From assembly GCF_032062105.1 (NCBI RefSeq), contig NW_026935559.1:558001-622000 (forward strand): 64,000 nt of DNA, written 5' to 3'. Each line of letters starts with the position of its first letter. Within the stretch, counting starts at the first letter, position 1. The notes under the pieces are model-generated. The model saw only the letters and a list, made by a program, of their open reading frames with translations, was not told the DNA's origin and searched no databases. Of this stretch, positions 4,498 through 59,400 are shown one piece after another. The DNA is from Saccostrea cucullata. Taxonomy: Eukaryota. Made by a program: the position numbers and the translations under genes.

Positions 4498-4559
4498 ACG
4501 AATTTCTAAAAAATTAAATCCCGCAATGCCTATAAGTAATTGACTTGTCACTTACAAAT

Positions 4560-5890
4560 GAAAGCTTTCTAATTTTATTCTTTTTAATTGCATCCGAATT
4601 CCATCTCCCCATTTTTTGAATAGATTTTTTTTTCTGAAAATCCCAATTTTGCATTATCCTTTGCTGCACCAATTCGAAAGCTATGCCTTTCCTATAGTTT
4701 TTGATTCAGACCAATGACAGATACTGCTTAATTTAGATGTTTATTTACAAATGAATGAGACACTGGTTGACCACAATGAATTGACCACCTAAATTCTTTT
4801 AATAAGAACAGATTATGCTGGATCTGCAAGATTTTTTATTTAGTGTATAAACCCTATTGCACATGTGTGGGATGAAATGCTATTAGTTGAGTATTTGTTG
4901 GCAAATAAATGAGTAATGAAATTGCATAAAACTATAGGTGAAATAGGTATTAGGCAACTGAAACCGCTGACCAGACTTAAAAATCTTCCAGCTTCATTGA
5001 CATTAAGATGCTCTTGTGCTATTTGATAAAGATGCAGTCAAATTGCTTTAAGCCACTGGTGTTTACATTATCAAGAGATGATGTGGTATTGATGCTTGTT
5101 TCTAGAAAAGGTGAAATATTCCCCAAGACTGAAGCAAAATCTACTGACCCAGAGGCATCTGTGAAAAGTGTGAGGTATTGCAAAGATAATCATCGGTAGG
5201 AAAGAAGTATATATTTCCCATTGTAATATTCAATGAAATACTACCAGGTGTCAAGAGCTGCCCTTGCTTCAGTCAAAAGTGAGTTTATTGTAAAGAAATA
5301 GGTTTTTGGTTCCCTCAAGTTAAACTTGATTGATCGCATTCGGAATGCCCTTCCGGGAACTACTTACGTATACAGCACATGCAAATAAAAGACTGCATAC
5401 TTTCTTCATAAACCTAGTATCATTCAAATTTATGTTTACTTTAAGTAATTCAGCCCCAGGCAATCAGTATTCCAAAGCAACAGAGCTATTTTGATAACAT
5501 ACTTACAAATCTACTATGTAGTTGAAGGAAATGTGTTTTTATCATCTTTAATTTGGACACGTACAAACACATTGTTATACCAATGCAATATATTCTTGAA
5601 ATGGTTGTACCAATAAAAAAGAAATTATCTACCAGGTAATATGTGAGATATTCCTCCTGCTAAATAATTTAATGATCTCATCAATTAAACATAGTGCCCT
5701 CAGAGTCCTAGAACACCTGAATTTATGGAAACATTTCTGGGATAAGCCAAGGTAATAGATTATCCTAAATTTCCTGGATCTAATTTTGGAACAACATCTT
5801 ATGTTATGGGGATGACCCGAAAATCATTAAAAGGTTTCTGATTGAAAAAAGGGGCCACCAATCCTACCAAGTGAAGAACTGTGTTCCACG
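4560..5890 (-). mobile_element. Decayed DIRS/Ngaro-type tyrosine-recombinase retrotransposon (RT, RNase H, YR) with internal deletions
   Basis: Minus-strand remnants: RT GRIGGPF..PFNDFRVIPI..VPK.DPG (~5740-5875) and FACAV..VVPGRAF (~5340-5390); RNase H LTLFTDASGS (~5145-5175); YR FITHLFANKYSTNSISSH (~4865-4920) and HSFRIGAA...MGRWNS (~4592-4685). Many stops and frameshifts. Confidence 0.85.
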
Positions 5891-12962: not shown

Positions 12963-14378
12963 AAATTGTTAGTACATTATATGGATGTTTCATTAACAAT
13001 GCAAATAGAAAAGGTAATAAAGGTGGATGCTATTCTCTTGTTTAATAAACGTCATCCAGTTCCTTTTTTGATGAATGAGAAAATACATTTGATGATAAAC
13101 AAGATATATATATAATTGCAAACTGTACGATAGAATCGCCTTCCTAACAGTTTTGTGAATTGAAACTGTCATTCGTCTTTTGGCAAAATTCTCTCAATAA
13201 GCCTTGGGCTCTTTTTGACAATTTTCTTTTTCTCTAACAGCAAATACCTAGTATAAAATGAGTACTTATAGTTTAAATTTCGTGTAAGTGATATTTAAAC
13301 ATCTAAAGGTTTTCTAAAGAAAAGAATAAGTCATGGAAAATGTCTTTGTCGGACAAACATTGAATATTCTTTATGCCTGAAATATGATGCGTTAATATTT
13401 GTATGGAATCAAATATTGGTCGAAGAAAAAAATAGTTAATTATTGACATACATCTGTTGTCTCCCTTGAATATATGAAGGTATATATTGTGTTGTATGTG
13501 TCATTTAGGAAATGTAAGAATTTTCCTTGAATGAAGTAATATTTAGTGCAAAAACATTTAAACTATACATTCTGATCTTCTTCAATGCTTAAAGTTTAAA
13601 ATTATCTACAGGAAATAAATCTAAAAACCCAGCTTTCGATTTCAGGTCATTACCTGTTTCGTAGCATTCACACACTTGTTGCTCAGGGTTTATTGATCTA
13701 ACTATTTATAGTCGTACGTGTTTTCACGTTACTAATTTCTTTAAAATTTTCAAGTACCGGGTTATTCATGGAAGTTAATGTGCTTTTCCTAAAGGATTGG
13801 TAAGACATTAAATATTTTACTACAAACAACATATATATACATATACAAACATGTATACATGTAAACAGATATATTTTCGGCTCTTTTTTTGTTTACTTTC
13901 TCTTTCATTGATACTAGAAACTGCTACTTTTGATTTTGATACAACAGGTTATACAATGGACATTACAAATATTTCAGTCATATCAATAAAGACAATGGAA
14001 AATGCAATCTAGTTCCTTTATATTTCAATGTATGTCAGTGGAATATTTATGAATTACTGTACTTTATTTTTAACTGGAAATTTCCATGACCTAGAGATCT
14101 ACTTAGTTTGCGCTTTAAATATTAAGTGTCCCTTCCAGCAAAATGTAAATATGTGCATTTGTAATTGTGTTTATTTTTCATGAAAAATCAAATTGGACTA
14201 GGTTTTATATCTCTCAAAAGAAAATAGTTTTTGGTAGTTATTGAGAATAGTTTTAGTTTTTGAAAGTTGATTCTTTATATTTGGAAAATTTGAGATAATT
14301 CGTATTTTTGAATATTTTCCTTGGTTTAAAGAGTGATTTCTTTTCTTGTAGAAAAGGGATTTAAAAAAAAAATAAAGA

Positions 14379-17300
14379 ATGGAATATATATACTTTGTTC
14401 AAGTCGACATAGATGACAAGTCAACATCAGTTGGTTCTCTGCGTTGTTCGGAGTATAAAGATCAACTTCGACCAGGATCCCCATCGTGTGTTCCAAAAGT
14501 ATCAATCAATGATATGGAAGACACCAGACCCATTTTGTATGCATGTTGGAATTCAGGGGCAATAAAATCTTTCTTCTGTCAAATTGAATCAAGGAAAAGG
14601 GAGGCGAAAATTTCTTCTTTGTATTTTCTCAATTTGAGGGTACATTATTTTGCCATCGATTGGAATAATCAGGTATGTAGCATCATTGTGGAAGCTAAAA
14701 ACTTTGCAATAGGCCAAATTCTACTAAATTTGAATTTTCAAAGTGTTCATAATTCTAACGTACTTCCAAAGATAATGTTTCCAAATACTGGACAGCAGTT
14801 AAAGGTAAACAAATTGACAAGCAGAGAGAATAAAATCAAAATTAGACCTCCTTATATTTCTAGGGTTTGTTGGAGATCGCTAGATTTTCTTATAGCCTCA
14901 TCTTGTTTCTCTCTGCACAAACAATTTAGTGTTTTCTTCAATATAGAAGCTTTCCAAAAGGTGCATTTCTTATGTGAACTCCAATGGTCTATATTTTGTG
15001 AAACAAGCTCACCTTTATTCGTTTCAGTGGATTACATAGCAATAAAGGGTTGTATCATTGCAAAACGTATCTTTGAAGTCAATGCATCAACATTTCAAAT
15101 AGAAATGACATCTTTGCTTTTTTCACCGTGCAGCATGCTTCTTAGATTCACTTCACGTTTCAACAGAGCTCGGGATATGCATACAGCTTACCTTTTAAAA
15201 CAACTTTTAAAAGTCTTTGACCATAAACATATCGAAATTGATGAAAATTTGCAAACAAAAGAAAACAAACGAAACAAAGGTAACCCTTATTCAAGCGTCG
15301 ATCCGACGGAAATGTATTGTCTAAGGAAAAACGAACATTTTGAAAACTCTCTGATGACAAAAATCCACGAGTTCTTTCACAACAAATCTGAATCTGATTT
15401 TACTGAGAATTTGGATACTGTTGGTGAAAGAAAGCAAAAAGAATGGCTTTCTTATAATTTCAATAATTTTTTGGAAATTTCAATGTTCCCTGTTTTCCGT
15501 AGAAATGATCTCGAATACTCGTTTCAACAAATTTTGAATGGTACACCCTATCTATCGAGTGAGGTTATGAGATTTGAACATCATCGTTTGAGTTCATTTG
15601 CAAATTATACCAGCAGTGATATACCAAGCGTACTGCTGATGGCTAAGGCCGGGTGGTATGCTACAGGAAATGGAATGGAAACAAAAACATTCTGTTGTAT
15701 GATAACTCATACTGCTTGGAGAAAAGAAGACGATCCATTTCATGTGCACAAAGATCTTTATTACGAATGTGCATTTATTCTGGGTTCAAATTTGGATCAT
15801 GTATCAATTCAGAGAGAAAATCCTGATTGTCAACGACGTAATTCCGATACCAACAATTCAAATCTTTCTGAAATTTCGACGAGGATGCAAAACATGGAAA
15901 TTGTTTCATCTAAGCCAAAAGAAGATGAACGAGTAGAGGAGGAACATTTAGTAAATGAATTTAAAATTGACAGGCCTTCAAAGTTATCCTCGAAATTAAC
16001 TCGAAACACATCCACAGCCTGGAGTATTGACTGTCCTTCTCGATCATTATCAGCAAACAGAGGAGTAGACAACTTTTCTCGAAACTTACCCGTTTGTGAT
16101 ATAAACCGCAAGACAGAAGAATCTGCATTAAATGAAGTCAGATCATTTGAAAACGATAAAAGTAATAGAAAAATAGAATTTACAGATAGCGGAGACGGTT
16201 CCAAACACGTTTTACACGAGCCGGTACTACCACCCTTAGATTTCGCGAAACCAAAACATATCGAATATTCCACGGTGGGGATAAGAATGTCCTCTTTCAG
16301 TGGTTTTCCCATTACTAGTAGAAAGACAGCAAAAGAGTTTGCAGTGGGCGGATTCTACTACAGAGGATTTGGTGATAGAACCACTTGTTTTCAGTGTGGA
16401 ATTAGTTTGCAAGGATGGAGTGTAGATGATGATATATTTGTAGAACATGTCCGTTACAATCCATTATGTCAATACATGAGGCGATTGAAGGGTGATGATT
16501 TCATAAAACTAGTTATGACAGCAACTGAAAACCCCCAGGTAACTATAAATGAACACAAAATAATGTTTCAAAAGTCTTTGACCTATTTCTATTATATTTG
16601 GTGTGATAGTTTATAAACAACTTTAAGAACTGCTAGGCAATATTTTTCTCTATAGACACCACCTTCTCTTTCAAGTTTGAGGGGCGATAAAACATGTAAG
16701 TTTTGATTTTTTTTCCATAGAAATTATTACAATGTGTAGATAAATCTTGTTCATGAATACAGTTGTGGTATAAATTCTCTTCCGTAGCACCTCAGAATTC
16801 TTCTGCAAAAGATATAGCCAGAAAACTTAAAGAAATGGGATTTTCCAAAAATGCAATATCTGCAGCTTTAAACATAGTTGCAACAAAAAATGGTATGTTT
16901 GGTCTGCCTTTGACAATTCAGATTCTTGTTACTATTTAGAACTGTTTTGTCACCAATCATCTGAATAACGTATCAATTTGTTTATGCTGTAAAGGCAATA
17001 GAACACTTTAGTCGGCAATTTACAGGAAATGTGGAAGAAATAAATAAATATTAATATTATTGCTCATGTTGATTTTTCAGTTAGTTTTACTATCCAGGAC
17101 GTTCTGGATGTCGTTGTTGAAAATACAGACATCGAACATAGAAATTCAGTGAACACATCAATTACATCAACAGAGCAAGAAGAAAATGAAGAACATTGTA
17201 ATTCACGAGATAATCTTTCAAATGCTTGTTTTTCTGAAAGTACATCGACTAGTTTTTCAACAAACTTAACAAGTGCCTCAAAGAGCGATTTGGAATTTAA

Positions 17301-17463
17301 AGATAAATTCTTATGTAAAATTTGTATGGATGAGAGAGTGGGGGCAGTTTTTACACCATGTGGTCACATTGTCACGTGCTGGGGATGTTCAAAATCTTTG
17401 GGAAAATGTCCCATTTGCCGTGAAAATATAAGGGATAAGATTAGGACCGTTATTAATGATTAG
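14379..17463 (+). CDS. IAP/BIRC gene 2, ~895 aa (exons 14379-16538, 16656-16695, 16788-16892, 17081-17463): ~390-aa orphan N-terminus, BIR1 (Cys->Thr), BIR2, UBA, RING
   Basis: RLSSF..AGWYATG..TFCC-x16-H-x6-C; RMSSF..GGFYYRG..CFQC-x16-H-x6-C; UBA motif LKEMGFSKNAISAAL; RING CKIC..PCGH..CWGC..CPICR. All GT-AG junctions are phase-consistent (0,1,1); there is an acceptor at 14351 before the ATG. Confidence 0.9.
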
Positions 17464-24360: not shown

Positions 24361-26643
24361 TACAATGTATATACAATGTATATATTCAAAAGAAAGGAGA
24401 ATTTCAAATTTTTAATTGAAGAAGTAGTTGTCTATGACATCAACAAATCCCGGTTTTAAACTCATCATGATTAATGTTGATAAAATGTAGAAAAGTAAAA
24501 CATATTGGAGTAACTGACTTTTGCAAAATTTAATGCATCAAAATCACATTACATTGATAATGCCCATGAATATGTTACGATATACCATGTATAATATTAA
24601 ATTTACTTTCTTGAGGAGGGGGGGGGGATAAGAAAAGTTGCATAACATATATTTATTAAGTAATGTCATGTCCTAAATTTTGAACTTATAGGGTAGAAGA
24701 AAAAAAATCAGAACATGTCAAAATCAGTAACATTCATAAAGAAGCGTCGTCGTGTACTGTATTTTCAAGGTTTTTCATTGATGATCCCCTGAGGTAAGAT
24801 TGTGATCACATACTAGTATGACATTTAAAATTATACATAAGAATACTCATATGTAGGAAACATTTCTAAAGTCTTTTTTATTTTCTTTCAGGCAGTATAT
24901 TGGATTAATTTATAAAATAGGAAATTTATTTTATTTTGTTTTAATTTTTGTCCATCAATAAATCTACGGTCTATCCAAATTTTCATTCCACTGTGATATG
25001 TGTATCATTTAGTTTTGAATCTGGAAATCAAGAGAATAAGGAAATAAAATTTATGTAAAAAATTAAATATTTCCTCGGTGTCAATGCATGGTTAAATGCT
25101 TCATACCTCGTGAAAAAAGGAAACTAAAATTTAGATATGAAAAAAATTCTCCCCAAAACAGCACTCAACACTCTTACATTGTCTACAGAGCCTTGAGGCG
25201 ACGAAAATGTTGTGAAAAAAGAAAAGAAAAATAAAATAGTTCGAAAAACATCATAAATTTTATCTAAAAATAGATTTAAAGTTATCTTGAATTGGATCAT
25301 GTTTTATTTAAATGGCTTGGTTTAAAAAGGTGTTTTCCATGCCTTATTTTCTGCGCTGATATATATCTGGTTTATTTTTGTCCAACTACGCCATTATCTT
25401 ATATCTAACTTGTTTGTCATTCCTTTTATAAGAAGTACTCAGCTTTTTTCTACAAAAATTAGTTTAAAAAGGTTAGAGAAATTAAAGATGAAATGATTTA
25501 TAAATTCTTTACTTATATTAGGAAGAGTCGCTTACTTCGAATGTTTTACTTTTATTGGAAATGTTTCCGTATTTAAATGTATCTTTTAAATGCGCAGAAA
25601 TAGACAGACCTAGTGCGCATTATGATATATTTATACATTATTTCATTTCTAGAATTTTAAAACAAGAACGCAAAAAACAACAAAAATGCGCAAAAAGTTT
25701 TAAAAACACGTATGCAGAAAGCTCGAGAATGATATATTCATACATTATTTCATCGCTAATTATTCAAAACAATATAAAAATATGAAATAAGGTAACTTCA
25801 GATGATTTAAATCCATTACTTTTGGGAGGTAATTCATTCAAGGGTTATCGTTATTTGCCGACACACCAGGAAGAAGCAATGGAGCAGGTACTCTTTCAAA
25901 ACATTTGCAAAAATTGTTTATTGTGGAAATGCATTTTATATGATTATATATATATATAATTATGGAACTAACTACATTGAACGTTTCTGAAAAAAAAAAT
26001 GAATTAAACATCAAATCTGTAGGGTTTTTAAAAAAAAAATGATTTTTCAACTTTCGTTTTGATAGATTAGCTTATACAGATTAAAGATTTTGATGAAATC
26101 AAATGTAATTTGATACATTTGGTTATATAGCATTGACTATTAGTAACATTTTCATTTGGATTACCTTTTAAAGTTTATTTATATATATTCCAACAGAATA
26201 TCTTTTTAAACATATATTTATATACACGCAAAAACATTGAGGAAAGTTTATATTATAAGGCTAAATATAACCTTTTCCGGGTCAATATTGATACTTGGGT
26301 TGTGTCGCGAGAATAACTATGTCAGCTTGCAAGGCTGGTATGAATATACAGGCTTGATACGAATAGTTTGGCGTCATGATAGTATATCGAAAATACTTAA
26401 TTATTATTAAATATATTTAAGAAAATTAAATGCATTTAAGATATCATATTTTCATTGTGTTACATTAAAAGTTTACATTTCAATTTAACTTATCTATCAC
26501 AAGCACCACTCTATTCAATAAAACTTTTTTTCAGGCGTATATGTGTACATATCTCTAAATTACTGAGACTGTTTTCCTATCTTCATACCAAATCCAATGA
26601 TGATTATTTAGTGACTTCCACATCAGACAATACTTACGGAATA

Positions 26644-29205
26644 ATGAAAAGCGGATTAAAATTATGTGAGGGCAGTATGAGGCTATTGATACCATTTGAT
26701 AAACTGAAAGATTGTTGCAACGAAAATGTAAATTTACATCAGACGAAGTTTTTACTCTCCTCGCCTAAAGCAGACATTGATTTGATTAAAAGGTTCTTTT
26801 CATATCAGGTACTTGCTGGTGTCCTTTTGTACAAAAGCTTTTTACATCAAATACTCATTGAATACATATTGCATAATGGAATAAATGTTTCCCCATTGGT
26901 ATGGGAATTCATACGCAGAAGTTCCATATCACAAGAAAATAACACTACAGACGCTGATGATCAGGAAAAGAATGATAACGAGGCTAGGGGAGAAAGGTAC
27001 AAAGATCCTTTAGGGAAAATAATCAAAAGCCCTGTAATTATAAATTTTCATATCAGTAATACTTTAATAACTTTTAAAGCATCTTTAAAAGATATTAAAG
27101 TAACTGAAAACAAATTAAAAGAGAAACATTTAACACTGCAAATGTTATCCACTGTGAATAAAGAGAGAGATGCCTTTCATTGTAAGGAAAATAAATGGTA
27201 TAAGGAATTATTTCTGCGTGAAAGAATAAATCCCCCCATGCCATTTCTGATATTGCCAGGTACAATAAACCAAAGTTTTAATAAACTCTCCCAAGGAACA
27301 CCGCCTGATGATTTTGAAATAATGAAATTTGAATTTCACAGATTAAGCTCATTTAGCAACTTTACCTTTCCCGATGTACCTAGTTCTATAATTTTGGCCA
27401 AAGCAGGATGGTTTGCAACAGGAAGCGAAAAAGAAACAAACACTTTTTGTTGCCTCAAAGTATATAGTAGATGGAAAAGAAGCGATGATCCGCATTATAT
27501 TCACAAAATGTTATCACCTACTTGCTTCTTTATATTAGGGAAAGATATTGGACAGATTTCATTTCATGATAGGGCTTTGAATGACAACAATGAAGCATCT
27601 GTGGATAATTCAAGGAATAATGGTTACCTTCCTGGAAATCAGCATAGACATTATAGTAATACATCCCAAGAAATTTTATACCAGAGAACTAACGATGTGG
27701 AATCACTGACGGATGAAATTGGCCAATCTTACACAAATCCAAAGGTTTTCAAAGAAGAATTAAGCGAGTGTGACAACGAATCGTTTGCCCAAGAAAGCGA
27801 AAATCCTGAAATACATTCTACAAACAATGTATCGCATTTGAATTGGAGCCTATCAGATGCAGTATATCCAAACCAATCAGAAATTGAAGCGAGGATAGAA
27901 AGCTTTTCAATGATTAATAAGTCTCATTATGCATTAAAAATTGGACCGGGCTCAGAAAATTTTGTTATTGCGAATAAAACCGCGGAGGAATTTGCTAGAG
28001 CTGGTTTATTTTACCGTGGATTCCGCGACAGAACTTCTTGTTTTTACTGCGGGATAGGTCTTCAAAATTGGACCTCCCTCGACAATATCATACTGAGACA
28101 CTACCAATCAAGTGGAAATTGTCCTATAGCTCAGGCATCAATACATGAAATAGATGCTGATAGAAATACATCATCAAGTAAGTCAATTTAAGTGTAAAAA
28201 CCATATAAAAATTGCAATAGATTACATGTATACACCTTCAAAACAAAAATTCCGCCGAAATATGACTGAAAAATTGCCGACTCGACGTTAAAAAATATAC
28301 AATCAATCAATCAAAACACAAAAAAAAATTTATATAAGTACCTGGAATTTGCAGGACAGGCATCCAGAATCCTCTTTAAGTGATCTATAATTTTTTTAAG
28401 GTGAGAATAGCGTTGCGGCTTCTCCGAATCAGAGCAGAGGGTATCCTCCAGATATGGAGGGAATTTGTGCTGAACTAGATGAAATGGGATTTGATGAGGA
28501 GTTAATCAAAGCGGCCATTGAAAGTTTAGGGCATCGGGGAAGTGAGTAGAAATGAAAAAGAGATATGTTTAATACAATAAATATATCTTTAAACATAATG
28601 TTATGATCAATTACACTTTAAATTATATTTACAGATAACAATATACTCAGTATATTATTGATACTTAATGGTGATTGTTCAAAAATTGTGTGTACTTTTA
28701 AAAAGTCTGACAAGTTTTCGTATTTGAAAAATAAATAACAAGATATATATTTTTAAATTCATGATCAGTTACCATAAGCCTAATAATTATACTTTCAGTG
28801 ACATGCACCAAAGAGAGAATTGTGAATGAAATTCTAGACAATAGAGCATCCTTGCATTCTGGATCGTCGATTTCTGGGAGTGCCGAATATAATTCATCAG
28901 AATATCAAGAATCAATAGAACCCTTGGAAAATCCGCGCATAGAAACGGCTTCCGGTGAAAATGCCGAAAAACCAACAGCGCCTGGTGAAAAGATTGATAC
29001 GACAGCATCTACTTCAAACCTGAGAGAACAGTCTGATGATGAACTGCGCAGGCGCGTCACGTGTAAGGTCTGTTTGTCGGAGGAAGTAGGGGTTCTTTTT
29101 CTACCCTGTAGTCATTTGGTATCTTGTGTCAGTTGTTCTCGGAGGTTAAAGAAGTGCCCCTTATGTCGAAAACATATTCAAACAAAACAACCCATGTTCT
29201 GGTAA
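26644..29205 (+). CDS. IAP/BIRC gene 3, at least 693 aa (exons 26535/26644-28177, 28401-28541, 28799-29205): orphan N-terminus, BIR1 (Cys->Thr), BIR2 with insertion, UBA, RING
   Basis: RLSSF..AGWFATG..TFCC-x16-H-x6-C; AGLFYRG..CFYC-x16-H-x6-C; UBA LDEMGFDEELIKAAI; RING CKVC..PCSH..CVSC..CPLCR; phase-1 GT-AG junctions. Start is uncertain: acceptor at 26534, first in-frame ATG at 26644. Confidence 0.88.
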
Positions 29206-29648: not shown

Positions 29649-32442
29649 CTAATATCGGCATTTACATGGCTTGCCCTGTAATGAAAAAAAAAAAATTCTC
29701 TTTAGTATCCTTGCATTCAAAAGACATAAATCGTGATCTAAACGTAGAGCTGAAGTAGAAACATACCGCCTTCAATTCACAAATGTAGTAGTGTTCCTTC
29801 ATACAGTTTTCTACGTGCCAGTGGTATCTATACGTGTGCCACATTATACCACAGTGGTAGTCCTTGTGTTGGTGGAATTCCGGCTCGTCTCCAAACCAGT
29901 CAAACTTGTGACACAGCGTGGTGCTGAACCCCCACCTCCAGCTGTGTTTTTCTATGTCAGATAACTCATTAAGTCCTATCCAAGCCCCCTGGTCAACTGA
30001 ATATGAATACAAACATGTTTTATTTCATGTCAAGCGTGATACATTTTCGACTGATTAAAAAGAATAAAATTCAATGTTATCAATTTAAAAAAATATCTTA
30101 AATCTGCATATGGCTTTTGCTTTATATTTGGACATATGTTGTCCCTTGCTATGCACGACTGATTAACGTATAAAAACTAACTTAAAGAATCTATTACATA
30201 AAGAGAATGTCTATATGTTAAAAGCGTACACAAACATTGAGCTAATAATATTTTCCAGCAGATAATTTGAACAATGGTGAACTTATTTTTTTTTAATACA
30301 TGTTGATTATTAAAATCTGGTTTTATATTCTATAAAATTATATAAAATACTTGAATATTTTTCAAACTAACTTTCATTGGATATAAGAAAATTTCTGAGG
30401 TAAGTATTCTCATGGGCAGTGTTTATGACCGCCAAGTAGCCGCCCATCGACGCACAAGTCATCTGCAAGAAAAACACCAAAATCCAAAACTTATCTTCAG
30501 GTGTTCAGACCATTATTCTGTTACATGCATAGAATGTAATTGTACATTTTTTCAAGAACTATTAGACACAAATTTTGTTTGTTTGTTTGCATTTTTAACG
30601 TAAATATTCAAAGCGAAAATTTGATATACTTTAATTAGTGGGAAGATTTTTGCAAATATTCATTATGATAATGTGTAGTATTGATTTTCATCTCGTTGTT
30701 ATTTACTTTTTGAAAAATATTTCAACACATAAAAACACTATATTCTAGAGACATCTAAACTTACCGTAGCTTTATACCAGCTAAGTTCGTCTCTGCTAAA
30801 GTAATAACAGCTATCGTCATACTTTAACCAAGCATAGGGACAGCTATTATTTTCAAGGTGTGGCTCTACTGTATTCAGTCTGAATGTTTTAGGCTGTTTC
30901 GGGGGTGGAGGAGGAGTTTTTAGTCCGCTGATATCTATTCCAGCTTTGTAAGATCCAAGGTGGTATCCTTTCTTGTTGTATCCCTTAACATGTGATGGTC
31001 GGTACTTTTTAAGATAAGTCTTGTAGTATGATTGGTAGTTTCCTTTAGAATAGGATCCGTCAAGATAATGCAAATAAATTTTTGGATAGTATTTTTGTAG
31101 GTATGTCCAGTACGCCTGACTATACCCACCTCTGTAGTTTCCTGTGTGGTACAAAATGTTTGTCCCAGAACCTCGAGCCCTATAAGAATTTTTCGATTTT
31201 TTGTATTTTTGTTTCTTAGAGTAACCTCTTTTCATGTTTCGTTTGCCTTTCTTTCGATAATATGAAACCTTGTAATATTTAGTTTTTCGATATCTTCGAA
31301 ACGGTCTGCGATAACGTCGTCTTCTTACACGGCGATAAGTTGAACGGTACTTCCGTCGAATGTAATATCGACGGCCAAGAAACGCATTCCTATATGAACG
31401 TTTTACAATATGGTGCGAACTTGTAGCACTCGTCAAATTATTATGGGATTGTCTTTGTGGTATGAAAACTGGATTCTTTAGTAGAGATCTCAGTCCATAC
31501 CCAACTACAGCTGCAGATTTTATTTTTTGTGCCTTAAATGTTGGACTTATAGATATAAACAGTGGATATCCTTTTAAAGAACCAGAAAGAAGCAGACTTC
31601 GAGGATGGACCTGTTGAGTCGAGCTAGGCAATGCACCATATACCCTTCCTTTTGAAGACAAATTCTTTATCAATTTCCACAAAGACTTTTGAGATAAAGT
31701 TGGAGTAAATTTCACAGAAGGATAAGAATTTGAGTTTTCATTTGTGTTTATTTGTTTCAGTTTATGTAATGGCTTAGCTATTGGCTCACGGTGCAGAACC
31801 CAGCGATACCCAGAGTGTGTACCTAGGTTATAGCGCTTCGCCCGCTTTTTACCAGTTGTTACTTGTGCCTCATCCATTTGATTCATGATTTTTCGAGCAT
31901 TAAGTTTATCCATGATATCATTCATCTGAGGCAGGGGTTCCCCAGGGTTTGAATCATTAATAGTTGTTGGTTCTGGTGTGGTATTAGGGTCAAAAGGTTT
32001 CGTTACCGTTTCGTCCCACGAGTAAGATTCATTTGGTTTAGCTGTTGTTTCCCACGAGTAAGATTCAGTTGGTTTTACCGTTGTTTCCAACGAGTACAAA
32101 TCAGTTGATTTTGTTCCAATTTTTTCTAATCTTTGCTTTTGTCTTTCTTTTTGGGTTTCCTCTGTTTTTTCTAATTCACTTTCGACACGAGGATCATTTG
32201 GATAACTATTATCTTGATCATCACTCCCGGTTAAACCATATGTTGTGAAAGCTAGGAAAAAACGTTTTTATTGACTCTAGTTTTTGATAACGTACTAGAC
32301 AAATAAATTTTCATGATGAAGACTATATCAGCTAATATTTAGTTTCCATTATCTTTTTAATAACCACAAAAAAGATTGAAAACTTACCCCATACATAGAG
32401 AAGTAAAACGAGTGTTAGTTCAACAATGGATACTGATGTCAT
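29649..32442 (-). CDS. Secreted 629-aa protein: signal peptide, acidic/Thr-rich repeats, Arg/Lys/Tyr-rich domain and C-terminal C-type lectin domain (exons 32442-32388, 32251-30765, 30462-30372, 29996-29767, 29675-29649)
   Basis: MTSVSIVELTLVLLLYVWA signal peptide; CTLD CPYAWLKYDDSCYYFS..WYKAT|MTCASMGGYLAVINTAHEN..|AWIGL..EPEF..HCG..WHVENC..YICE; terminal exon GKPCKCRY*. All junctions are GT-AG and in phase. Confidence 0.9.
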
Positions 32443-37175: not shown

Positions 37176-37552
37176 GCAAGTTATTCTATTTATTTATATT
37201 GATAGCAAATTTTGCAAACAAAACCTTTGGCATCGCTTTTTAAAATACTAAAGAAATTAGTTTTAAAAATGGAAATATCTGTTTGTGTTGAATTCTAAAT
37301 AATTTTAACAGTCAAAATCTTCTTTCTGAATGATAAAATGCGATGATAAGTAGTGAAGTTTTGAAATGAAGTTAAAGTACAAATTAAAAAGATGCAAAGT
37401 TTATACAAAAATTATGCAATCCAAGCATCCCCTGTCACAAATTACAAAAAATACAAAATGTAAACAGAAAAAAAATCAAAGATACTACTTGTACATGAAC
37501 ATTACATGTTAACTTAACCTGTAAAATAAATTTCCCTTTTTTTGCCTTTAAG

Positions 37553-38583
37553 ATGCGTTGCCTGGTCATCTATGCTGCATTAGCTATATTTGCTGGTCAA
37601 ATATTTGCTCAGGTTACCGAGCCAGTACCCAGGAATGGTAAATTGGTTTCCTTTTTAAAAAATGAAATATTAGATAAAGTGGCTAAAACTGAAATTCACT
37701 TTCCCTAGATCTTTTCAACTTTCTTACGACTAAGATAAATTTTGACAACTCTTTATATACAAAATTTCTCTAAAAGATCATCACAATACCGGTATATCAT
37801 AATATTTTAATGCAATATTTTTTTACTGTAACATGCACCTTCCAAAACTTAGATTTTAAAAAAATCTAAATTTATATACATACTCTAACTGTAAAACAGT
37901 CAATAATATTTTCATATTAATTATATAGCTCTATTTACACATGTATAAAAAAAATTTCATTTACTCTCTCAGGAACTGAAAGGCCTCCAATAGAAGAAAA
38001 GACCGTGGCTCCAGGGGGTGAAAATATTACGGGAATTCCAACAGAAGGTGACAAAACGCCACCAGCTCTCCCTGGCGTTGATCCATCCCCCGAACCCGAC
38101 CACGACGGAGAAGAAACCGGAAAAGGAAAAATCTGGAAGAATCGCATCGCCAAGTGGAAGAAAATGCGATTGAACAAGAAAGGTCCAGCACAAGAGAAAC
38201 CAGAAATCAAAGATGATGAAGAGCCCGGACAAGAAACACGGGATAAGGCAAAAGGACCAAGACCTAATGGGAAAACTGGTAATTATTTCTTACTCATTTG
38301 TATCTAGAGAACAGCAATTAAATATATTTTTACCATTCATTTACGTTTCCAGTTGCTAAAATACAAGTACATGTAGTTTATTCATCACAAGAACTAAAAA
38401 ATGTTATGAATATCTTTTGTGTAGAAAAAAATAAAAATGAATTCACATAAAATTATATTTTATCTGAGTTATTAATTAGAATTCAACTTAAATGAAGAAA
38501 AAATAAATTACATCATTTCAGATAAGGAACGTCGACCAAAATTTGGAAAACGTAGAGAAAGGGGGATGAAGATCTTTCCATGA
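37553..38583 (+). CDS. Orphan secreted protein A, 150 aa (exons 37553-37637, 37973-38278, 38522-38583)
   Basis: Signal peptide MRCLVIYAALAIFAGQIFA; Pro/Gly/Glu-rich region; cationic core KIWKNRIAKWKKMRLNKK; tail DKERRPKFGKRRERGMKIFP*. Phase-1 GT-AG introns; AATAAA at 38778. Confidence 0.85.
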
Positions 38584-41620: not shown

Positions 41621-43046
41621 CATCAAAAAATTAATAAAACAGCTTTAATTTCTTGATTTTTTTTTTAAATAATTGTTTTCCAAATGTTTCTTAATAAATA
41701 AGATATTCAAGACAATGTTCTGAACACAACAATTTCGTTCTGTAAGATAGGCTGATAAAATTAATTAGATAGTGAAGTATCAATTGATTCCACAATATGC
41801 CAATGGAAATAATTCTCAAAACTGATTTTTTTAATTATCAGTGTAAGGTTGATTCTATGAATAACGTCATTGTGTTAGAAGAAAAGGACACTTTCAACTG
41901 ATTAAAGACGAAATAAATTAAATTGAATGACAAACGTGATGACTTACATATTCCCTTATTTATGAAGCATTTTTTTGTATCTAGATGTTTTTGATTGATC
42001 GCTGTTAATGTTAAATTATTCTTTTTCACTGAAAAAAAAAATAAACAAATCGGCATTTTTAATGTTTGTACAACCATTTTGTTTCATCAAACTAAACAAA
42101 TAATCAAAGTTGAAAAAAAATTTCAACAACCGATAAAAAAAAAATTTTTGTTTGAAAAAAGATAAATTGATTATTATATCATTATTTAACACTTCCAAAA
42201 GTTAGGTGAATGTATATCATTTTTTTGCATTTCAAGGAAAAGTATACTATTTGCTAATTATAAAGACGATGAGAGCCATTTAGAAATTAGGATTTATGAC
42301 AAATATGATTACAGAATCATATTCCCTTATTTATATATTCTTTTGTTTGATGTTTTGATTGATCACTGTTAATGTTAAATAATCCTTTTTCATTGAAAAA
42401 TAAACAAATCGGCATTTTTAAAGTTTGTTCTACGGTTTGCATTCATTGAACTAAACAAACAATCAATTAAAAAAATAAAAACGATAAAAATAGATAAATA
42501 AATAAGATAAATTGCATGCTAATAAAATGTGTAATATTAGAGTTAGATGAGTGTTTTTTTTTATTTAGAGACGTGTTTGTAATAATATAATGAAACAATA
42601 AACCTTCGCGATTCACAAATATTTACAGAATTTTAATCCAGTATATATACTCATTTGTTTGAAATTTTTGTTTTTCTCCCTTCCTACAGGGTTTTAAAGA
42701 TTTTACTTGACGTTAAACGTAGATCGAATTAATATATTAGCTAACCAAAGAGTACAATTTTGCTTTAAATCCTTTGTAATATTTACAAACCTACACCTGA
42801 ACCTCAAACAGCTATATTAATTGCAATGACCCATTAGATTACCAAAAAAATATATATATATTGAAGGAATGACGTGATTAGTACGTAATAGAGCACAAAC
42901 CATGTGTACACTTTCAACACCTATTTTTGTACATAATTGATCCATTTTTTATTTTATTAATTGTTCCCTTAACATGGGCTTTCATAGTCTTGAAAAAAAA
43001 GCCTAGTAATTGGGGAAAAAAAGAATTTCTTTTTTTTTACTTCCAG

Positions 43047-43761
43047 ATGCGTAGCTTGATTCTGCTTGCATTCATTGGTGTGTTCACAGCGCAAGTTTTC
43101 TCCCAACGCGTTGGTATGCTTTACATCTATTAAAGAATGCAATAGTGTGATTTTATATCTATCATAGAATGCAATAGTGTGATTTGCTGTTTATCTTTCT
43201 TTCGTGTATGCTTAAACAAATCTAACAAACCAAAATACTAAGAAATCCTGTAACATTTTATATGTGTATTAACATAATTATAAAATTTGAAATTCAAAGG
43301 TAATGTTGATAAAACCTTACCACCTAAAGATGGAGCAATAAGCAGAAGACCGAAAGTGGATGACAAAACTAAAGGACCCGGAGACGGAGGAATAACAAGA
43401 CCAGTTGTCAATGTCAGAACGAGGCAACCAGGAGGGGTAACAAGAGGACCGGAAGTTGGAGATAGAACCAAGGGACCACGAAATGGTAGAGTTACGAGGA
43501 GACCTAAAAATGATGACAAGAAAAGGAAACCAAAGAAATTTATCAAAAAGATCAAGGGAGGTAAGTCTATTTAAAAAAGTGTTGCAGTTAGTGAGATATC
43601 CCAACATTTTTTTTCATTGTTAAATAATGCTTTTAACCTTTATCTCTTTAATAGGTAAAGGACTTGGAAATATGAAAAAAATGAAGCAGAGGTTTACAAG
43701 AAAAATGAAATCCTTCATGAAGATGAAGAAAGGCATGTTCAGGAAACAGAAACAAAATTAA
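43047..43761 (+). CDS. Orphan secreted protein B, 144 aa (exons 43047-43113, 43300-43560, 43655-43761), paralog of gene A
   Basis: Signal peptide MRSLILLAFIGVFTAQVFS; four ~17-aa repeats (D[K/R]TKGP.DG.[I/V]TR.P); Lys/Met-rich tail. Same exon and phase layout as gene A; AATAAA at 43877. Confidence 0.87.
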
Positions 43762-44084
43762 ACCAAGTGAACACAAGATTTAGAGTATATGCCTTACAGA
43801 ACGTCTTCCAACGCACTTACCCTTTCTCCATGCAAAAATGTTTTTTAAAGCTATCAAAATCAGTTACTAATTTGAAAATAAAACAAAATATTTCATTTGT
43901 TTTTATTTTTTTATTCATATTAAAATTTATTTGCTATTAAAATCAAAAGTATATAGAATCTGAGTATATTTGCTATAGCATTTTTGAAATACGATTGATG
44001 TTGAATTCGATAGACACCTTATTTGATTTTCATCTCGTACATGTAATCAGTGTACCTAGCTCATACATTCTTTAGAGTCATCGA

Positions 44085-52903: not shown

Positions 52904-53406
52904 AATATTGAAAGTAGATTCAAAATCTTAATTTATTTTACATTTGACAATCCGGAAGACAAGCCCCTATATGGCATAAACTGGATGAAATTATGTAAAA
53001 AATGTCCTATCTCATGTTACAGCTTTTGCAATCTTAAGTTACACGCAGCTTTTTGCAAACTGGTTGTACCTCTTTTGATTATAATACGGGAGTCAGTTGT
53101 CCTGTTTACAATTTAACATTTGGATTGGTTTTAATAAAAGATTGTTTATATATATCATATTTGAATTCATTTCAATATCTATTCCTTTGAATATTTTCTC
53201 TTTTATTGCTTAAAATGAAAAAAAAAAGTGAAAACAAAAACGTGTCCAATCTCACATATCGTCAAATTGGGGATTTAAAACCCGGCCCTACTTAGTACTA
53301 GATTTACCGCCTTCTCAGAAGTTGGTCAATACCAGCTAGAACCAGAAGCGGACTATTAACATGATTAAAATAATTTGAGTCTGCATTATCATTATGTCAG
53401 ACTGTA

Positions 53407-56400
53407 ATGATTGTTAGGTTTATCACGAAGACACTATTTGCGAAGCCACGGACAAATTTTCTACTTAATAAGATGGAGGATTCCAAAGTCAGAGCTTTAT
53501 GTGACGAATTCTGGGACTGGAGGATGCGTCAAAGTCCGGAGTTTGCCTCATTCTGCGGAGATCAGAGATATTGTCATCTTTTGGATGATATCGACCCAGA
53601 CAATTTTGAGGAGTTTGAGGTAAATTTTGAGTTATCAACCACATGACATGGTGTATTATTTAATCTTTAATTAGACAGTATTAGAAATAATTCAGAGCCT
53701 AGTATTGATAATGTAGATGCATGCCTAACCTTAGAATTCAGTATTTTTTAATTTAAAAAACAGTTGTGTGTTGACTCTAAACCTGTTCTATTCAGTTACA
53801 CAAGGTCATCCATTTGAGTTTTTTTTTCATATAATTTTTATGTGAAATGTTAACTCAGTGAGATTCATAGAGACTTGTAACAGGATAGGAGGAAATGTAT
53901 GGCTACTGACCGGGAATCTAACCCAGGACCCCTGCATCACTGGTCATTGGTCAAGTGGTCATGTGCTCTACATATAGCTATCGAGGGAGATATCCATGGC
54001 CAAAAGCATTACATTCCCCCCACCTTAAATGGTATATGGCCTCAGAGCCACAACCCAAGTTCTTCATAATTAGCCCCTGGCAGAGCTTTCACCTGCAATT
54101 CCAAGTTCAATGGCACCATATATCGATCTGAAACGGAAAAGGAGGAAATGTATGACTGGACCAAACTATTACAGACTAAAAGTTTTGGTCTGGTGTCTCT
54201 GTGAATCTCAGACTTAGTGTGGAAGCATTCTTGGTAGTGTAGATTCTAAATTTTACAAACCATGAACCCCCTGGGTAGGAAGGGCTGGAATAGGGAATCC
54301 AAATTTACATTGAAAAATGTAGGAAAAATCTTTAAAACTCTTCTTCTCAATAACCACTGGGCCAGAAAAGCTGAAACTGATGTGGAAGCATCCTTGGGTA
54401 GTGTAGATTCTAAATTGTCCAAATTAAGACCCCGTGGGGTAGGGTGGGGTCACAATAGGTATTACAAAGGGGAGGAGGCATCTGGTAAAGAAGAACAGGT
54501 TTACTCAGGTGAGCGATGTGGCCCATGGTCCTGTTGTTTCCAATGGCATTTGGATAATTGGATTCTGGACAGAAAATGCAAATATATACAGCGTATTAGA
54601 TGCATGGTGTATATTTATGTGATGTGAGTTGCCAGTGACCAGTCCTGTTGTTTAAGGGGCCAATGGCATTTGATATAATTGGCCATGTCCCTGAAAGACC
54701 TGCCAGAGAATCGGAGTATATATAGAGGCCAAAGACCTTTTAGATGCATCGTCGCCAGTATATTTATGTGATGTCTGACCAGAGATTCAGGGGGTCTGCA
54801 GGGGTGTGCAGTGACCAGATAAAGTTACTAGCCCCAAGTGAAAAGTTACTAGCCCAAATATAGGGGCAAAAATTAAAATAAAAAACAATACATTGAAAAG
54901 AAATTACTTGTTGAAAAATGCAGGGTACTGAGGTCATTCTTTTTAAAATTAAAGTTTAATTCTCACTATGAAATTAAATCATGTATAAATTATAATGAAA
55001 GAAGATTAAAATGAATTTAAATAAATTCTTTCCCATTTTTCTGAACATTGCACTAGCTCATTTAGAATGAAATTTAAATTTTGTATTTGGTGTATTTTTG
55101 CCATGTAAAACCTTAGCTTTCAGTTAATTGAGTGATCGTAAATAATTTCAAGATACCATGTATTTACCATAAACGAAAGAGGGAAATTGGCGGAAAAAAG
55201 ATGTTTTCAGGAGGCCAAAGACCTTAAAGGTGAGAGGAGCATGTGGTGAAAACTTTTCACTGATGGGAATTTGATAGCAAAAACGAGTGAAAATGCAGGT
55301 TGTGCTTTTCATGTATTGCTTGTGTAGTTATAATTTTTACATGAAAATCACTAGCCCGACCCCAAAAAGTGATAGCCCCGGGCGTCGGGCGATGCTAATT
55401 GCACACCCCTGGGTCTGGGTTCGAATCACAGTCTGGTCCATTTGCATATTATAATTATAGTACTACTCTTACATCCTTTTTGTATAATTTACCATAATGA
55501 TAAAAAAAGTTATAGCCTCTTAAATTCAGAATGGTATTAAATGATGTAAAATGAAGAGTGTTTTACTATTTATTACCTTCTTGTTGGAAAAACTTTGCAT
55601 AAACATAACTAGTTTTGTAATTTATTTATTTTCAAGTGCTAAGCCCCTGCATATGCCTTTGTTTGTTTATCTCATTTGATTACATGGAAGGCAAAGGGAT
55701 TTATCAGTTTTATTATACATATGTAGGTTACAACTTTGTTTATTTTATTTTACAGGAAGATGTTTCCAAAATGTTAGAGAAGGCAGAAGCAATTGAAGTA
55801 AAGAATTGTTCCAAACGTGCCAGGAATGCCCTCTTACTTGTGAAGGATCAGATGGACACATTTGTAGATGGAATGAAGCATAAGTGGTTAAGCAATAGTA
55901 ATATTTACTTCAAGGATCACAGATATCATTTGTTTTAGGCCAACAATAAAAAATGATTTGTTTGAATAACTCAGACCAGCCAATCAAAATTGCCCCTCCC
56001 CCCAATCATTTTTTCAGCTCTTTGTATTTAAATTTTTTTTTTAGCAATAAATATTTAAATATTTTTACGATGGCCTTAGAGATACTGACAAAATGGTCAA
56101 AATCTAACAAATCATAGAAACTATATCAATTTATACAGTTGAACTTCGGTATCTCGAACACCAGCTTTGTCTCGAATACAGTGGATATGTCAACGTGATT
56201 TGGAAGTCCCAACCACTTACCGGTATTCTTTAAGTATTTTAACTTTGATTTCTCGAATCATCAGATACCCAGGTTTTTCATACTCCTAGGTCCCACTGAG
56301 TTCGAGATAACATTTAACAAACAATCTTAGAAGAATGGTTAATATATTCAGTGGCATGAAATGTAGTAAACAGCTTAATCTTGATGAATTTTAGTAAGGA

Positions 56401-59400
56401 AAGAAATATAATATCCAGTGTAATTTTTTCAGCTGGTATTTTCCAATCAACTTTATGGATGGGTTGCATGCAGATGCTCCTAAAGTAATGAGTACCTGCC
56501 CAACCAAAACAGAAGAAGACTTCAAAAATCTGAATAAAAGAATTAGATGTTATGAAAAGAAGGTGAGTTGGTGATCTTTATACTGTAAAACGAGAAAAAT
56601 TGGCGCATAAGCACTTTGGCACAAATGCAAGTAGGAATGCATTGACGCAAATAAATTTTAGTGCTTGCACTGTCATTAAAATATGTAAATGTGATATTGT
56701 TTTCTTTTATCTATGCCCGTATTTGACTTTTTGGTTAGTCAAGCATGGAAACACATAGCACTCCCGTATATAAGTAACTTGACATTCGTCAACTTGACCA
56801 TGGTGTTACAGTCACATGAGCGTGGCACAATGTCTATTTTATTTTAATTTTTTTTAAAAAGAAAACGATGAGTATTTACGCAATTTATCCATATTAAAAC
56901 AATGCATGCATTTAAAGGAAGTTGCATGTACTTAGATACATTGTAAATGGTAATCAAAATCAGGTATTGTCTGCAAGTTCAATCGCCATGCTTGATTGCA
57001 ATGTTTACCTCGAGGCGATAGATGATTGACACATGAGACGCCAGACTTTGAAGGTGCTAATTATACTATGTAAGTATCGGGTAACAACTAACAATAGTTT
57101 AATTAAATTATAATTTGGCAGAACTTTCTCTATCGATCCTACAGTGCTAGTTTGTATATAAAAATCCAATGACCCTTCGACATTACGTAATCGTACGTTC
57201 CGGTTTACATGTACTTATGTGAAAACTTTGAACACACACAAAAAGTAATATTTAGAAATCCATTAGCGCACAATAAATTTTAGCGTCATGGGGCATTTAC
57301 GTCAAAGGCGCTAAAATTAGTAGTGCGCCATATATTGTCGTTTTACAGTATGCAATACAATGAATACATGTACCATAAAAATTGTGAATACGGTAATTAC
57401 AGAAAAACAGTTTAGTACAAACACGGATTTTGCGAATTCAAAGATATAGTGAAGTTATTTTGGATCCCCAGCTATATAAATTTAACGAATTCCTTACATG
57501 GATATAACGAATTAAGGATATAGCGTTGCTTGAAAATCAATAGACCATAACAAAATCAGGAGAGTTATTTGTATAAAAGCCAAAATTATACCTGTTGTTT
57601 AAAGTTTCAGCTATCGATTATATTAGAATACAAAAATACAAATTTTCGAGTAAACCTTCAGTTTTGCTTTATAAGCATAGTTTTGTAGCTATTGTTAACT
57701 TTTGGAGTAGAGATTTTTTGTTTTCTTGTAGGCCAAAAGTTGTATACACCTTCTGAAAGAGGGAGTGGACCACGGTCATGTTAACCATCTATACTCAATA
57801 GTAAGTCAAATTTATACTTCACTTCTGTAACTTATATAAAAGATGAAATGATGATATGGACAGTTATATTGTTGGACGAAATGGTCTATTATTGTTGTGT
57901 GTACCATTTAGGAGGGTGTACCAGATCAGTTAGATCTGTTGATCAGTGCTGAACTGACTCCAGAAACAGATGTTTTTCTAGCACCTTACAAAAAGTTTCC
58001 TGCATCCATTGATCCCTCTATAAAGTAAGTGAAATAAAACTTACAGAAATTACTCAGTTCATTTTCTCAAACTTTTAAAGACTGAGATTAGACTTGATTT
58101 AGTCACTGGAGATTGTTTAGCATCAATGCTTTTTAGATTTATAGTGGTCATAAATTCATGGGTCTCTTCATGCCTCAAAAACAACAAAAATTGAACTCCA
58201 AGGGAAAAATAGTACATTGTAACTTCACCATAAATACAGACCTGTGAATAATTATAAAACAGAATGATTCAGGGTCTGTGAAAAAGAGAAAAATTCTGTT
58301 ATTTTATATTGAACATGGTGCATTTTATTTTTTTGCAGGTCTGAGACAATAGCTCAATTAAGTGAATACATCTAATCAAAGATTGTCCAGTTTCTGTCTT
58401 ACATAGTGTGCTCTAAATGTTCCCTACTGATGAAAAAATCCTTATAGTTCAAATGAAAAACCATGTCCTCTTTTAAAGGGAGATAATGTAGAAATTTGGT
58501 TGTTTTCTTTTTTTTTTTCCTCAAAAACCAAAGAAAAAAAGATGAAATCACATATGGAGGTTTAATTTTTATTGGTCTTGTAGTATATTTTTGGTTTACA
58601 ACAAAATGCTATTTTTTTAAATACTAATAAGAGTATCATGTGTCTTCTATAACCACTGAATTAAATCTCCTCAATCCAAAATTTTTTTCAATCCTCAAAA
58701 ATAAAATCGCAGTAATTTGAAAGCAGAACACAACAAATACATATATATATATTTTTGTTCATTTTTGACTTCAGAGAACAACTTTTAGAAGAAGCAAAAG
58801 ACATAATCCAAAACATTGTAAGACCAGCATTTAAAGAACTGGCTGAATATATAGAAAATGTAAGTATGTAATTAGGACCCTGCAGTGCATGTACCTTAAA
58901 GTTATCAATTTGTCAATCTGTTTATATGTTTCCTTTTCAACCTATCTTGCTCATACTCTGAAAGTGCCCATGCATAAGTATAGGGTATGCAATGACCTTG
59001 ATTTAAGTTCTAGACTTAAGGTCAAAAAACGCCAGTGTAAAACACTTGACTGCATCATATTTTCCCTCCCTTGGGCCTATCGGGTTCATTCTTTACTTTG
59101 TTAAATTCCCAGTTGTAAAGCAATGACCTTCAACCATATTTAAGCCAGAAGTCAAAGTTCTGAGCAAATTATTTTTCTTGGATATTTTTTCATGGATCTT
59201 GATTTACCTGACCAGTTCTTGTGATTAATTTGTTTGCAGTGACCTTAAACCAATGTCAAAGCAGTACTCTGTGTAAAAATTGAGGATTTCAAGGTCAAAG
59301 CAGCCTTTTTTTATCAATTAAGACAAATGTTAGACTTTGTTCTTGGGCCTATGTAGCAAATATTTACCCCTAAGAGTGCCCTCAGGTATTAAAAGTGCAC

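Follow-up and report, generated by a model that had tools for sequence, protein, structure and literature searches.

A predicted two-product lectin precursor as a candidate larval glue protein of oysters

A stretch of 64,000 nucleotides of the Saccostrea cucullata genome (assembly GCF_032062105.1, contig NW_026935559.1, positions 558,001 to 622,000; in the following, the window) contains a minus-strand coding region in which a long tract rich in Arg, Lys and Tyr (R/K/Y region) precedes a C-type lectin domain (CTLD). A first reading, made from the sequence alone, had proposed a pro-protein that releases a cationic, catechol-crosslinkable lectin for cement, periostracum or microbial trapping. 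The locus thus raises the questions of whether the tract belongs to a genuine gene, how its product would be processed, and where that product would act. We tentatively favour, at a little under an even chance, a secreted precursor of 629 residues that would be cut at the motif HHIVKR, so that its Tyr-rich lectin arm could be cross-linked in the byssus-derived glue deposited by the larval foot at settlement.

The large exon is transcribed and retained in frame

The gene has five exons separated by GT-AG introns. The R/K/Y stretch is part of exon 2 and lies within an open reading frame of 509 codons (32267-30741, minus strand). RNA evidence came from a relative that is about 91% alike, with four of the seven listed runs aligned (X1, X2, X3 and X5); X1, X2 and X5 are three runs with three study codes. 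The seven runs hold only 5-6% of the sampled words and were chosen for containing this gene. Contigs of the gene were present in all four aligned runs, at depths of 3-107, although contig depth cannot rank genes by expression. Splice joints in the contigs of X1, X2 and X5 jointly cover four of four introns, and X3 shows none. Because a single spliced X1 contig spans the whole of exon 2 and joins it to exon 3, with 136 substitutions and net indels of 3 nucleotides (nt) only, the large exon is transcribed and retained in frame.

Two artefacts were considered and discarded. Skipping of the large exon, which the sequence-only reading had named beforehand as an observation that would speak against it, was not seen, exon 2 being retained in the spliced contigs of the close relative. 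A chance open reading frame or frame artefact was ruled out by the splicing, the conservation and the in-frame indels. The exons and the regions of the predicted protein are as follows (window coordinates, all on the minus strand):

32388-32442 (-): exon 1 (55 nt), carrying the start codon and encoding a hydrophobic N-terminus like that of a signal peptide; GT donor in phase 1; run X2 has the joint 32250/32388; the named orthologue of S. echinata begins alike
30765-32251 (-): exon 2 (1487 nt), pro-region, predicted cleavage site, R/K/Y region, hinge and the first 26 CTLD residues
31833-32249 (-): acidic Thr/Glu-rich region, residues 20-158, poorly conserved, with RAKR (31844-31833) at its end
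31476-31832 (-): basic middle module, residues 159-277, with the conserved ends Y[DN]LG..SG[YF][RK]W and P...I.P.F[KR]A....A.V.GY
31398-31415 (-): HHIVKR, residues 298-303, predicted convertase site, followed by SY
31152-31397 (-): protamine-like basic arm, residues 304-385, 44% Arg plus Lys, 17% Tyr, zero acidic residues
30933-31151 (-): conserved Tyr block, residues 386-458, 18 Tyr in 73 residues, holding a duplication with a period of 29 residues
30843-30932 (-): Pro/Lys hinge, residues 459-488, with PPPPP at 30914
30765-30842 (-): first part of the CTLD (CPYAW to WYKAT)
30372-30462 (-): exon 3 (91 nt), CTLD; joints in X1, X2 and X5; length and phase as in the two paralogues checked
29767-29996 (-): exon 4 (230 nt), CTLD with the motifs WIGL, EPE and WHV; length matches the two paralogues checked
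29649-29675 (-): exon 5, subfamily tail GKPCKCRY and stop; joint 29674/29766 in X5

The signal peptide was called by eye from the hydrophobic N-terminal exon. The NCBI model LOC134243256, which carries the label Saccostrea cucullata, is identical to the last 502 residues; it begins at an internal Met and is without the signal exon. In this genome, the R/K/Y region was found once, a count that is a lower bound, and the gene stands outside the tandem clusters of short paralogues.

Conservation differs between the regions of the precursor

A search with exon 2 gave 10 clusters among 6640 candidates. The named orthologues come from S. cucullata, S. echinata, O. edulis, M. gigas, C. angulata and C. 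virginica and span the four genera Saccostrea, Ostrea, Magallana and Crassostrea; they are single-gene and 580-630 residues long. Among the matches of the searches run, no sequence from outside the oysters carried the N-terminal regions. Identity to four orthologues was 13-46% for the acidic part, 32-73% for the middle module and 70-89% for the CTLD. The sequence-only reading had called the N-terminus acidic, and this applies to residues 20-158 (isoelectric point (pI) 4.7, net charge -7), but not to residues 159-303, which are basic (pI 10.9, net charge +19).

Cleavage at a conserved dibasic site is predicted

On the minus strand, RAKR starts at 31844, IVKR at 31409 and PPPPP at 30914. The proposed secreted precursor with a dibasic site (IVKR) ahead of the R/K/Y region was supported, although cleavage itself is predicted: all 63 sequences of orthologues and alleles have HHI[VA]KR followed by S[YF] (56 with SY, 7 with SF), a count that covers stored sequences longer than 380 residues with a CTLD start, most of which are alleles of a few species. 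HHIVKRSY is 88-100% identical to four orthologues, whereas the flanks are 26-51% identical outside Saccostrea. RAKR had been proposed as another convertase site. It is not conserved and was rejected in this role, with a furin-type motif at its place in 1 of the 15 orthologue sequences checked; some dibasic pair occurs within the 12 residues before the middle module in 13 of these 15.

Most short paralogues start with SY or QY straight after the signal peptide, and a third paralogue type has KR or RR followed by EY or AY. Because the present protein has KR and then SY, the simplest reading is that a convertase would here make the start that signal peptidase makes in the paralogues. For apfp-1, a byssal protein of Atrina, the N-terminus is reported as ASXVPPVD by Edman degradation and ASYVPPVD in the cDNA (PMC4912638). 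Cleavage into two basic products at HHIVKR is likely, judged by these sequence features, and the C-terminal product would have about 39 kDa and a pI of 9.9 (computed on a model that is five residues short).

The middle module is shared with a lectin-free gene

The genome has two matches to residues 159-277, on C11513 and C14363, with E values of about 1e-10, and the reciprocal search agrees. The two matches are 95% alike, and the loci are probably alleles. The lectin-free gene lies at G000:C11513:242158-241137 (minus strand), with the likely allele at G000:C14363:1-564 (plus strand). According to the gene model, which was built from DNA, a signal-like exon and one large exon encode a predicted secreted basic protein of 277 residues (19% Lys, 11% Arg, 8% Tyr and 8% His) with KxxRHRYRKYQH-like tandem repeats. 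It ends about 20 residues past the shared module and has no CTLD; a Pfam scan of it gave no match. For the middle module itself, the ESM Atlas returned no usable match (best template modelling score 0.33), and a metagenome scan gave 14 pattern matches, of which 0 were confirmed.

In the precursor, a cut at HHIVKR would fall about 25 residues after the middle module, so the N-terminal product would resemble the lectin-free protein. The recurrence of the module in a separate, lectin-free basic secreted protein suggests that the present gene would encode two products, and it makes the lectin-free protein a second matrix candidate. What is new at this locus is the long precursor with a middle module shared with a separate lectin-free gene. 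The joining of an R/K/Y region to a CTLD, which the sequence-only reading had implied to be novel, is not new, as apfp-1 already joins a DOPA (3,4-dihydroxyphenylalanine) region to a CTLD (PMC4912638). The surprise is therefore limited, because the design of a Tyr arm plus a lectin domain had been published.

The R/K/Y region combines a variable arm with a conserved Tyr block

The span from IVKR to PPPPP comprises 161 residues with 19.9% Tyr, 15.5% Lys, 14.9% Arg and 9.3% Gly (pI 10.6, net charge +47). This composition bears out the earlier description of the region, and the peptides quoted in it match letter for letter. The hinge followed by a CTLD was confirmed as well: CPYAW (30842) lies in the same exon, and the Pfam cut-off for Lectin_C is passed. 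By composition and conservation, the region has two parts, a fast-changing basic arm and a Tyr block of 73 residues that is as conserved as the lectin domain.

The arm has a net charge of about +36 and many dibasic pairs. Its composition is kept in 9 of 9 sequences (41-46% Arg plus Lys, 13-17% Tyr, at most 2 acidic residues, 60-94 residues), but its sequence and length are not conserved (26-78% identity to four orthologues). The Tyr block, in contrast, is 78-90% identical to the four oyster orthologues, and the hinge 50-96%. One M. gigas UniRef model (P0010) is about 70 residues short in the arm and the Tyr block compared with other M. gigas models, which is either a model error or an isoform.

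The internal duplication noted earlier (17 residues, period 29, score 51) is real within the Tyr block, where its score was reached by 1 of 1000 shuffles of the 73 residues. It is modest across the whole region, where 9.5% of the shuffles of all 161 residues reached the score (P 0.095). A trace at the DNA level was sought and not found (P 0.30), so that a recent DNA duplication behind the repeat was rejected.

The mussel interfacial foot proteins mfp-3 and mfp-5 place Tyr beside Lys or Arg, and the sequence-only reading had pointed to the role of such adjacency in the wet adhesion of mussel foot proteins. As a designed pattern, it was not supported in the present protein. Over the 161 residues, 16 of 32 Tyr have a Lys or Arg neighbour, compared with a shuffle mean of 16.6, so that the pairing does not exceed what the composition predicts. 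By part, the numbers are 11 of 14 in the arm (P 0.32) and 5 of 18 in the Tyr block; Tyr stands beside Gly in 3 of 18 cases, with 4.2 expected by chance.

An ESM Atlas search with the R/K/Y region gave no usable match, and a Pfam scan of exon 2 matched no family. Structure predictions were of low confidence, both for the full length with 11 rows (mean predicted local distance difference test (pLDDT) 30) and for the Tyr block with the CTLD start as a single sequence (pLDDT 43.5); the Tyr-block repeats came out helical in both models.

The lectin domain belongs to a subfamily with adhesive kin

The CTLD begins in exon 2 and continues over three more exons. Pfam Lectin_C (PF00059) scored 53.8 bits for the S. 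echinata orthologue against a cut-off of 22.6, exon 4 alone scored 24.3, and a CTLD search found 43 solved CTLD sequences at E values of at most 1e-8. The six Cys of the long form (489, 500, 517, 593, 609 and 617) and WIGL are present, together with three extra Cys (573, 625 and 627). Because the nine Cys are the six canonical ones plus three more, we infer that one Cys is unpaired within the chain. A structure prediction for two copies of the CTLD scored 0.03, a low score that speaks neither for nor against a dimer.

The closest CTLD relatives form a subfamily with 44-57% identity, which includes a Cys-rich "aggrecan-type", a tandem "perlucin-like" type of 182 residues, a type in which KR precedes the domain, and proteins of Pinctada. 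A tree of 55 domains places all 25 rows of the subfamily on one side of a branch (support 100/98, stem 1.53); the 30 other CTLDs came from one search, are mostly from multi-domain receptors and represent a subset of the bivalve C-type lectins (CTLs). Five orthologues group together (96/96), while their place within the subfamily is left unresolved by the tree (91/84). Alignment scores were 373-529 for full-length paralogues, compared with at most 195 outside the subfamily. The exons of 91 and 230 nt recur in both paralogues checked, and the Cys-rich tail [KQ]PCxCx[YLH] is shared with the oyster members. The Pinctada protein FSP39_019299 is 50% identical over 133 residues of the CTLD and contains GLNDVLFPK, which is one of three peptides sequenced from apfp-1 (PMC4912638). 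The matrix or adhesive kinship proposed for the CTLD was thus upheld, as the domain falls into the subfamily of a byssal DOPA protein and not among generic lectins.

Exon 4 was matched at 17 further places in this genome, mainly in two tandem clusters of subfamily CTLDs at G000:C17664:104000-147000 (11 exon-4 matches, one with a stop) and C3700:24000-59000 (4 matches). These clusters are likely equivalents of the pediveliger-specific lectins discussed below, judged by sequence. Three further subfamily members were noted. One, at L029:7007-8718 (plus strand), has a Lys/Thr-rich N-terminal arm and is spliced in run X2; its first loop had no match among the named records checked. A divergent member (L041, G000:C8113:138001-148000) has a long tandem-repeat intron that splits the CTLD exons. 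In a Pinctada model (P0196), a subfamily CTLD is joined to ferritin-like sequence, and these are probably two genes fused by annotation.

Site of action and alternative readings

In the favoured reading, a secretory-granule convertase would cut after KR and free the C-terminal product beginning with SY, while the acidic N-terminal part could balance charge as long as the precursor is stored in the secretory cell. Tyrosinase or peroxidase would convert Tyr of the Tyr block to DOPA or dityrosine and thereby fix the protein in the matrix. The variable Arg/Lys arm would supply charge for anionic surfaces or polysaccharide, and the CTLD, with a non-canonical site and a spare ninth Cys, may anchor the product to glycans or partner proteins. 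The N-terminal product would itself be a matrix protein, like the lectin-free relative. The pediveliger foot is the most probable site of action, which we rate slightly below one half. This site is favoured because the closest characterised kin are byssal (apfp-1) or pediveliger-specific. Six pediveliger-specific CTLs of M. gigas are reported to be 44-48% like apfp-1, and tyrosinases and a peroxidase also appear as pediveliger-specific (PMC6337334). Four of the six CTLs (CGI_10010615 and three of a cluster) are described as falling sharply at the protein level after settlement (PMC7574277). The subfamily includes K1QBI0 ("Aggrecan core protein") and K1REI9 ("Asialoglycoprotein receptor 2"), whose names match two of the six.

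Several observations weigh against the favoured reading. The furin consensus has an Arg at P4, which IVKR is without, so that a granule convertase fits better. Furin-type motifs within the arm (3 here, 0-3 per orthologue, 0 in the Magallana sequences) could trim the product. Tyr is enriched next to neither Lys/Arg nor Gly, and the apfp-1 repeats VVPDYKPP, VPKYK and PVYK were sought in the arm without success. The lectin lacks the canonical sugar motifs: all full orthologue models (8 of 8) have EPE and WHV/WHL instead of EPN/QPD and WND of Ca site 2. The kinship to apfp-1 runs through one shared peptide and reported identities, and the K1 entries were tied to CGI numbers by name, not by accession. 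The gene was matched to none of the six CTLs of the pediveliger list, which appear to be shorter paralogues, and its expression may be broader than the pediveliger. The six orthologue gene numbers were found in no paper searched, nor in the supplements of PMC10140915 and PMC11464482. The larval glue of oysters is described as fibrous, unlike foamy DOPA coacervates, and DOPA is not reported for it (PMC6193008, PMC6337334).

The RNA runs also bear on the site. X1 and X2 contain spliced contigs both of this gene and of the aggrecan-type paralogue, whose contig depth was about 900-5400 in X2 and 6-7 in X1, with unjoined pieces at 4-5 in X5. For X3, no exon cover of the paralogue was listed, although absence of cover proves nothing. 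That contigs of this gene are present in all four runs, and those of the paralogue are not, is a hint that its expression is independent of the pediveliger set. A possible, if rather doubtful, alternative is a matrix protein of the mantle edge in juveniles and adults (for periostracum, adult cement or organic layers of the shell) that would be tanned via Tyr. The finding of spliced contigs in X1, X2 and X5, with their three study codes, is consistent with it, as is the position of a single conserved gene outside the paralogue clusters. A shell-matrix precursor processed at a dibasic site has a precedent in Pif (PMC11291548), and adhesive and shell proteins are reported to have domains in common (PMC6337334). 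On the other hand, the nearest characterised kin are those of byssus and pediveliger, and the oyster-family identifiers are absent from the mantle-biomineralisation supplement of PMC11464482, which is a weak test, as the identifier system was unchecked.

The high charge, the lack of acidic residues, the many dibasic pairs and the fast change of the arm would also suit mucosal defence or particle trapping, in which convertases would free linear, Arg/Lys/Tyr-rich antimicrobial peptides and the CTLD would agglutinate; myticalins, which are reportedly gill-specific and cysteine-free, may be counted in the same direction. Mucosal CTLs of bivalves are reported to serve both in feeding and in immunity, and Ca binding is retained by several of those with odd motifs, although most of the motif variants listed retain an Asp, which is gone here (PMC12842671). 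We consider this role improbable, since one copy with 70-89% CTLD identity across genera is unlike the expanded immune lectins, and the conserved Tyr block and the subfamily kinship suggest a material role. Least probable, to our judgement, is a protein uncut at HHIVKR or with unmodified Tyr, the whole of which would be a granule scaffold that condenses anionic cargo by means of a folded or self-associating Tyr block. The block is conserved by sequence beyond the needs of a catechol-rich low-complexity tract, its repeats are helical in both low-confidence models, and its Tyr neighbours lack an mfp-like pattern, all of which would fit a scaffold. However, the invariant KR amid variable flanks is followed by the x-Tyr start that paralogues obtain from signal peptidase, and the lectin-free relative ends about 20 residues past the shared module, near the predicted cut.

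The larval glue precursor is thus retained as the favoured reading. A bolder and unlikely form of it is an oyster-specific glue polyprotein, in which a stand-alone basic matrix gene and a lectin gene of the apfp-1 type would have been joined, with a convertase site at the junction, yielding two cement proteins 1:1; the Tyr block would be a self-assembling, cross-linking module that builds the cement fibres, and the cement would be what is left of an ancestral byssus, now serving permanent attachment. The composition of the larval glue is described as unresolved because the material resists extraction (PMC6337334). The gene is a single-copy, family-wide glue candidate with a defined predicted cut, searchable peptides and kinship to a characterised byssal DOPA lectin. 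If the favoured reading is true, oyster cement would be linked to the pteriomorph byssus, with an undescribed Tyr module and a lectin-free protein added; if the protein belongs to the mantle instead, it would still be a new processed matrix precursor.

Neighbouring genes

Three tandem inhibitor-of-apoptosis genes (BIR plus RING) lie at 396-1278, 14376-17460 and 26440-29202 (plus strand) of the window, and Pfam confirmed the second and third BIR pairs as well as the third RING. The third gene ends about 450 bases from the stop of the lectin gene, tail to tail. Two adjacent genes at 37500-38500 and 43040-43940 (both plus strand) have similar signal-like first exons and low-complexity exons rich in Gly, Pro, Lys and Arg; the second of them has short imperfect repeats, and a Pfam scan of both gave no match. 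A multi-exon gene at 53374-61635 (plus strand) has a match at 60143-60445 to DUF885, a family described as bacterial. In the contig flanks of the window (L036, L037 and L039), open frames resemble, by translation only, reverse transcriptase, integrase and recombinase pieces of retrotransposons.

Comparison with known systems

Mussel mfp-3 and mfp-5 and the protamines are rich in Arg/Lys and Tyr. The likeness is one of composition only; homology searches run with this protein gave no mfp-3/mfp-5 or protamine match, and the tract is here fused to a CTLD. Protamines are small, nuclear and without a signal peptide; the hydrophobic N-terminal exon and the disulphide-rich CTLD in one spliced chain speak against a nuclear protamine.

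Pif (Pif97/Pif80) of Pinctada fucata is described as a matrix precursor that is cut at RMKR into two products (PMC11291548). The present protein would resemble it as a precursor of the bivalve extracellular matrix that yields two products by a dibasic cut; unlike the present protein, Pif has VWA and chitin-binding domains and a furin-type site, and no domain is common to both.

The perlucin-like pediveliger CTLs of M. gigas (CGI_10010615, CGI_10006917-22) are closer. Through their likely equivalents, they share 50-57% CTLD identity, the GKPCxCxY tail, the exons of 91 and 230 nt and the x-Tyr mature start. The aggrecan-type gene and the orthologue lie on one chromosome-length record in S. echinata, O. 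edulis, C. angulata and C. virginica. In contrast, the pediveliger CTLs have 180-350 residues, a short or Cys-rich N-terminal part, EPV or EPI and 10-11 Cys from the CTLD on, and are mostly found in tandem clusters, whereas the present protein has EPE, 9 Cys and a single gene.

A literature search, covering papers open without subscription, found apfp-1 and the pediveliger CTLs and no account of this precursor; apfp-1 was not among the 28 matches of the CTLD profile search. It is described as a byssal protein of 38.7 kDa that contains about 5 mol% DOPA and whose CTLD bound mannan with Ca (PMC4912638). Both proteins have a signal peptide, a Tyr/Lys-rich N-terminal region, a Tyr-containing second region and a C-terminal CTLD, and the mature apfp-1 (about 38.5 kDa, pI 9.5) resembles the predicted C-terminal product in size and charge; the CTLD subfamily is shared via the Pinctada protein bearing GLNDVLFPK. 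However, apfp-1 starts right after an 18-residue signal peptide, whereas about 285 residues and the KR site come first here, and where apfp-1 has Gly-flanked Tyr and tandem repeats rich in Pro (VVPDYKPP, PVYK), the oyster protein has a conserved Tyr block and an Arg-rich arm without repeats. Only for apfp-1 are DOPA, binding of mannan and a location in the byssus shown. Judged by sequence, the oyster protein thus shares the design and the CTLD subfamily of apfp-1 but is not its orthologue.

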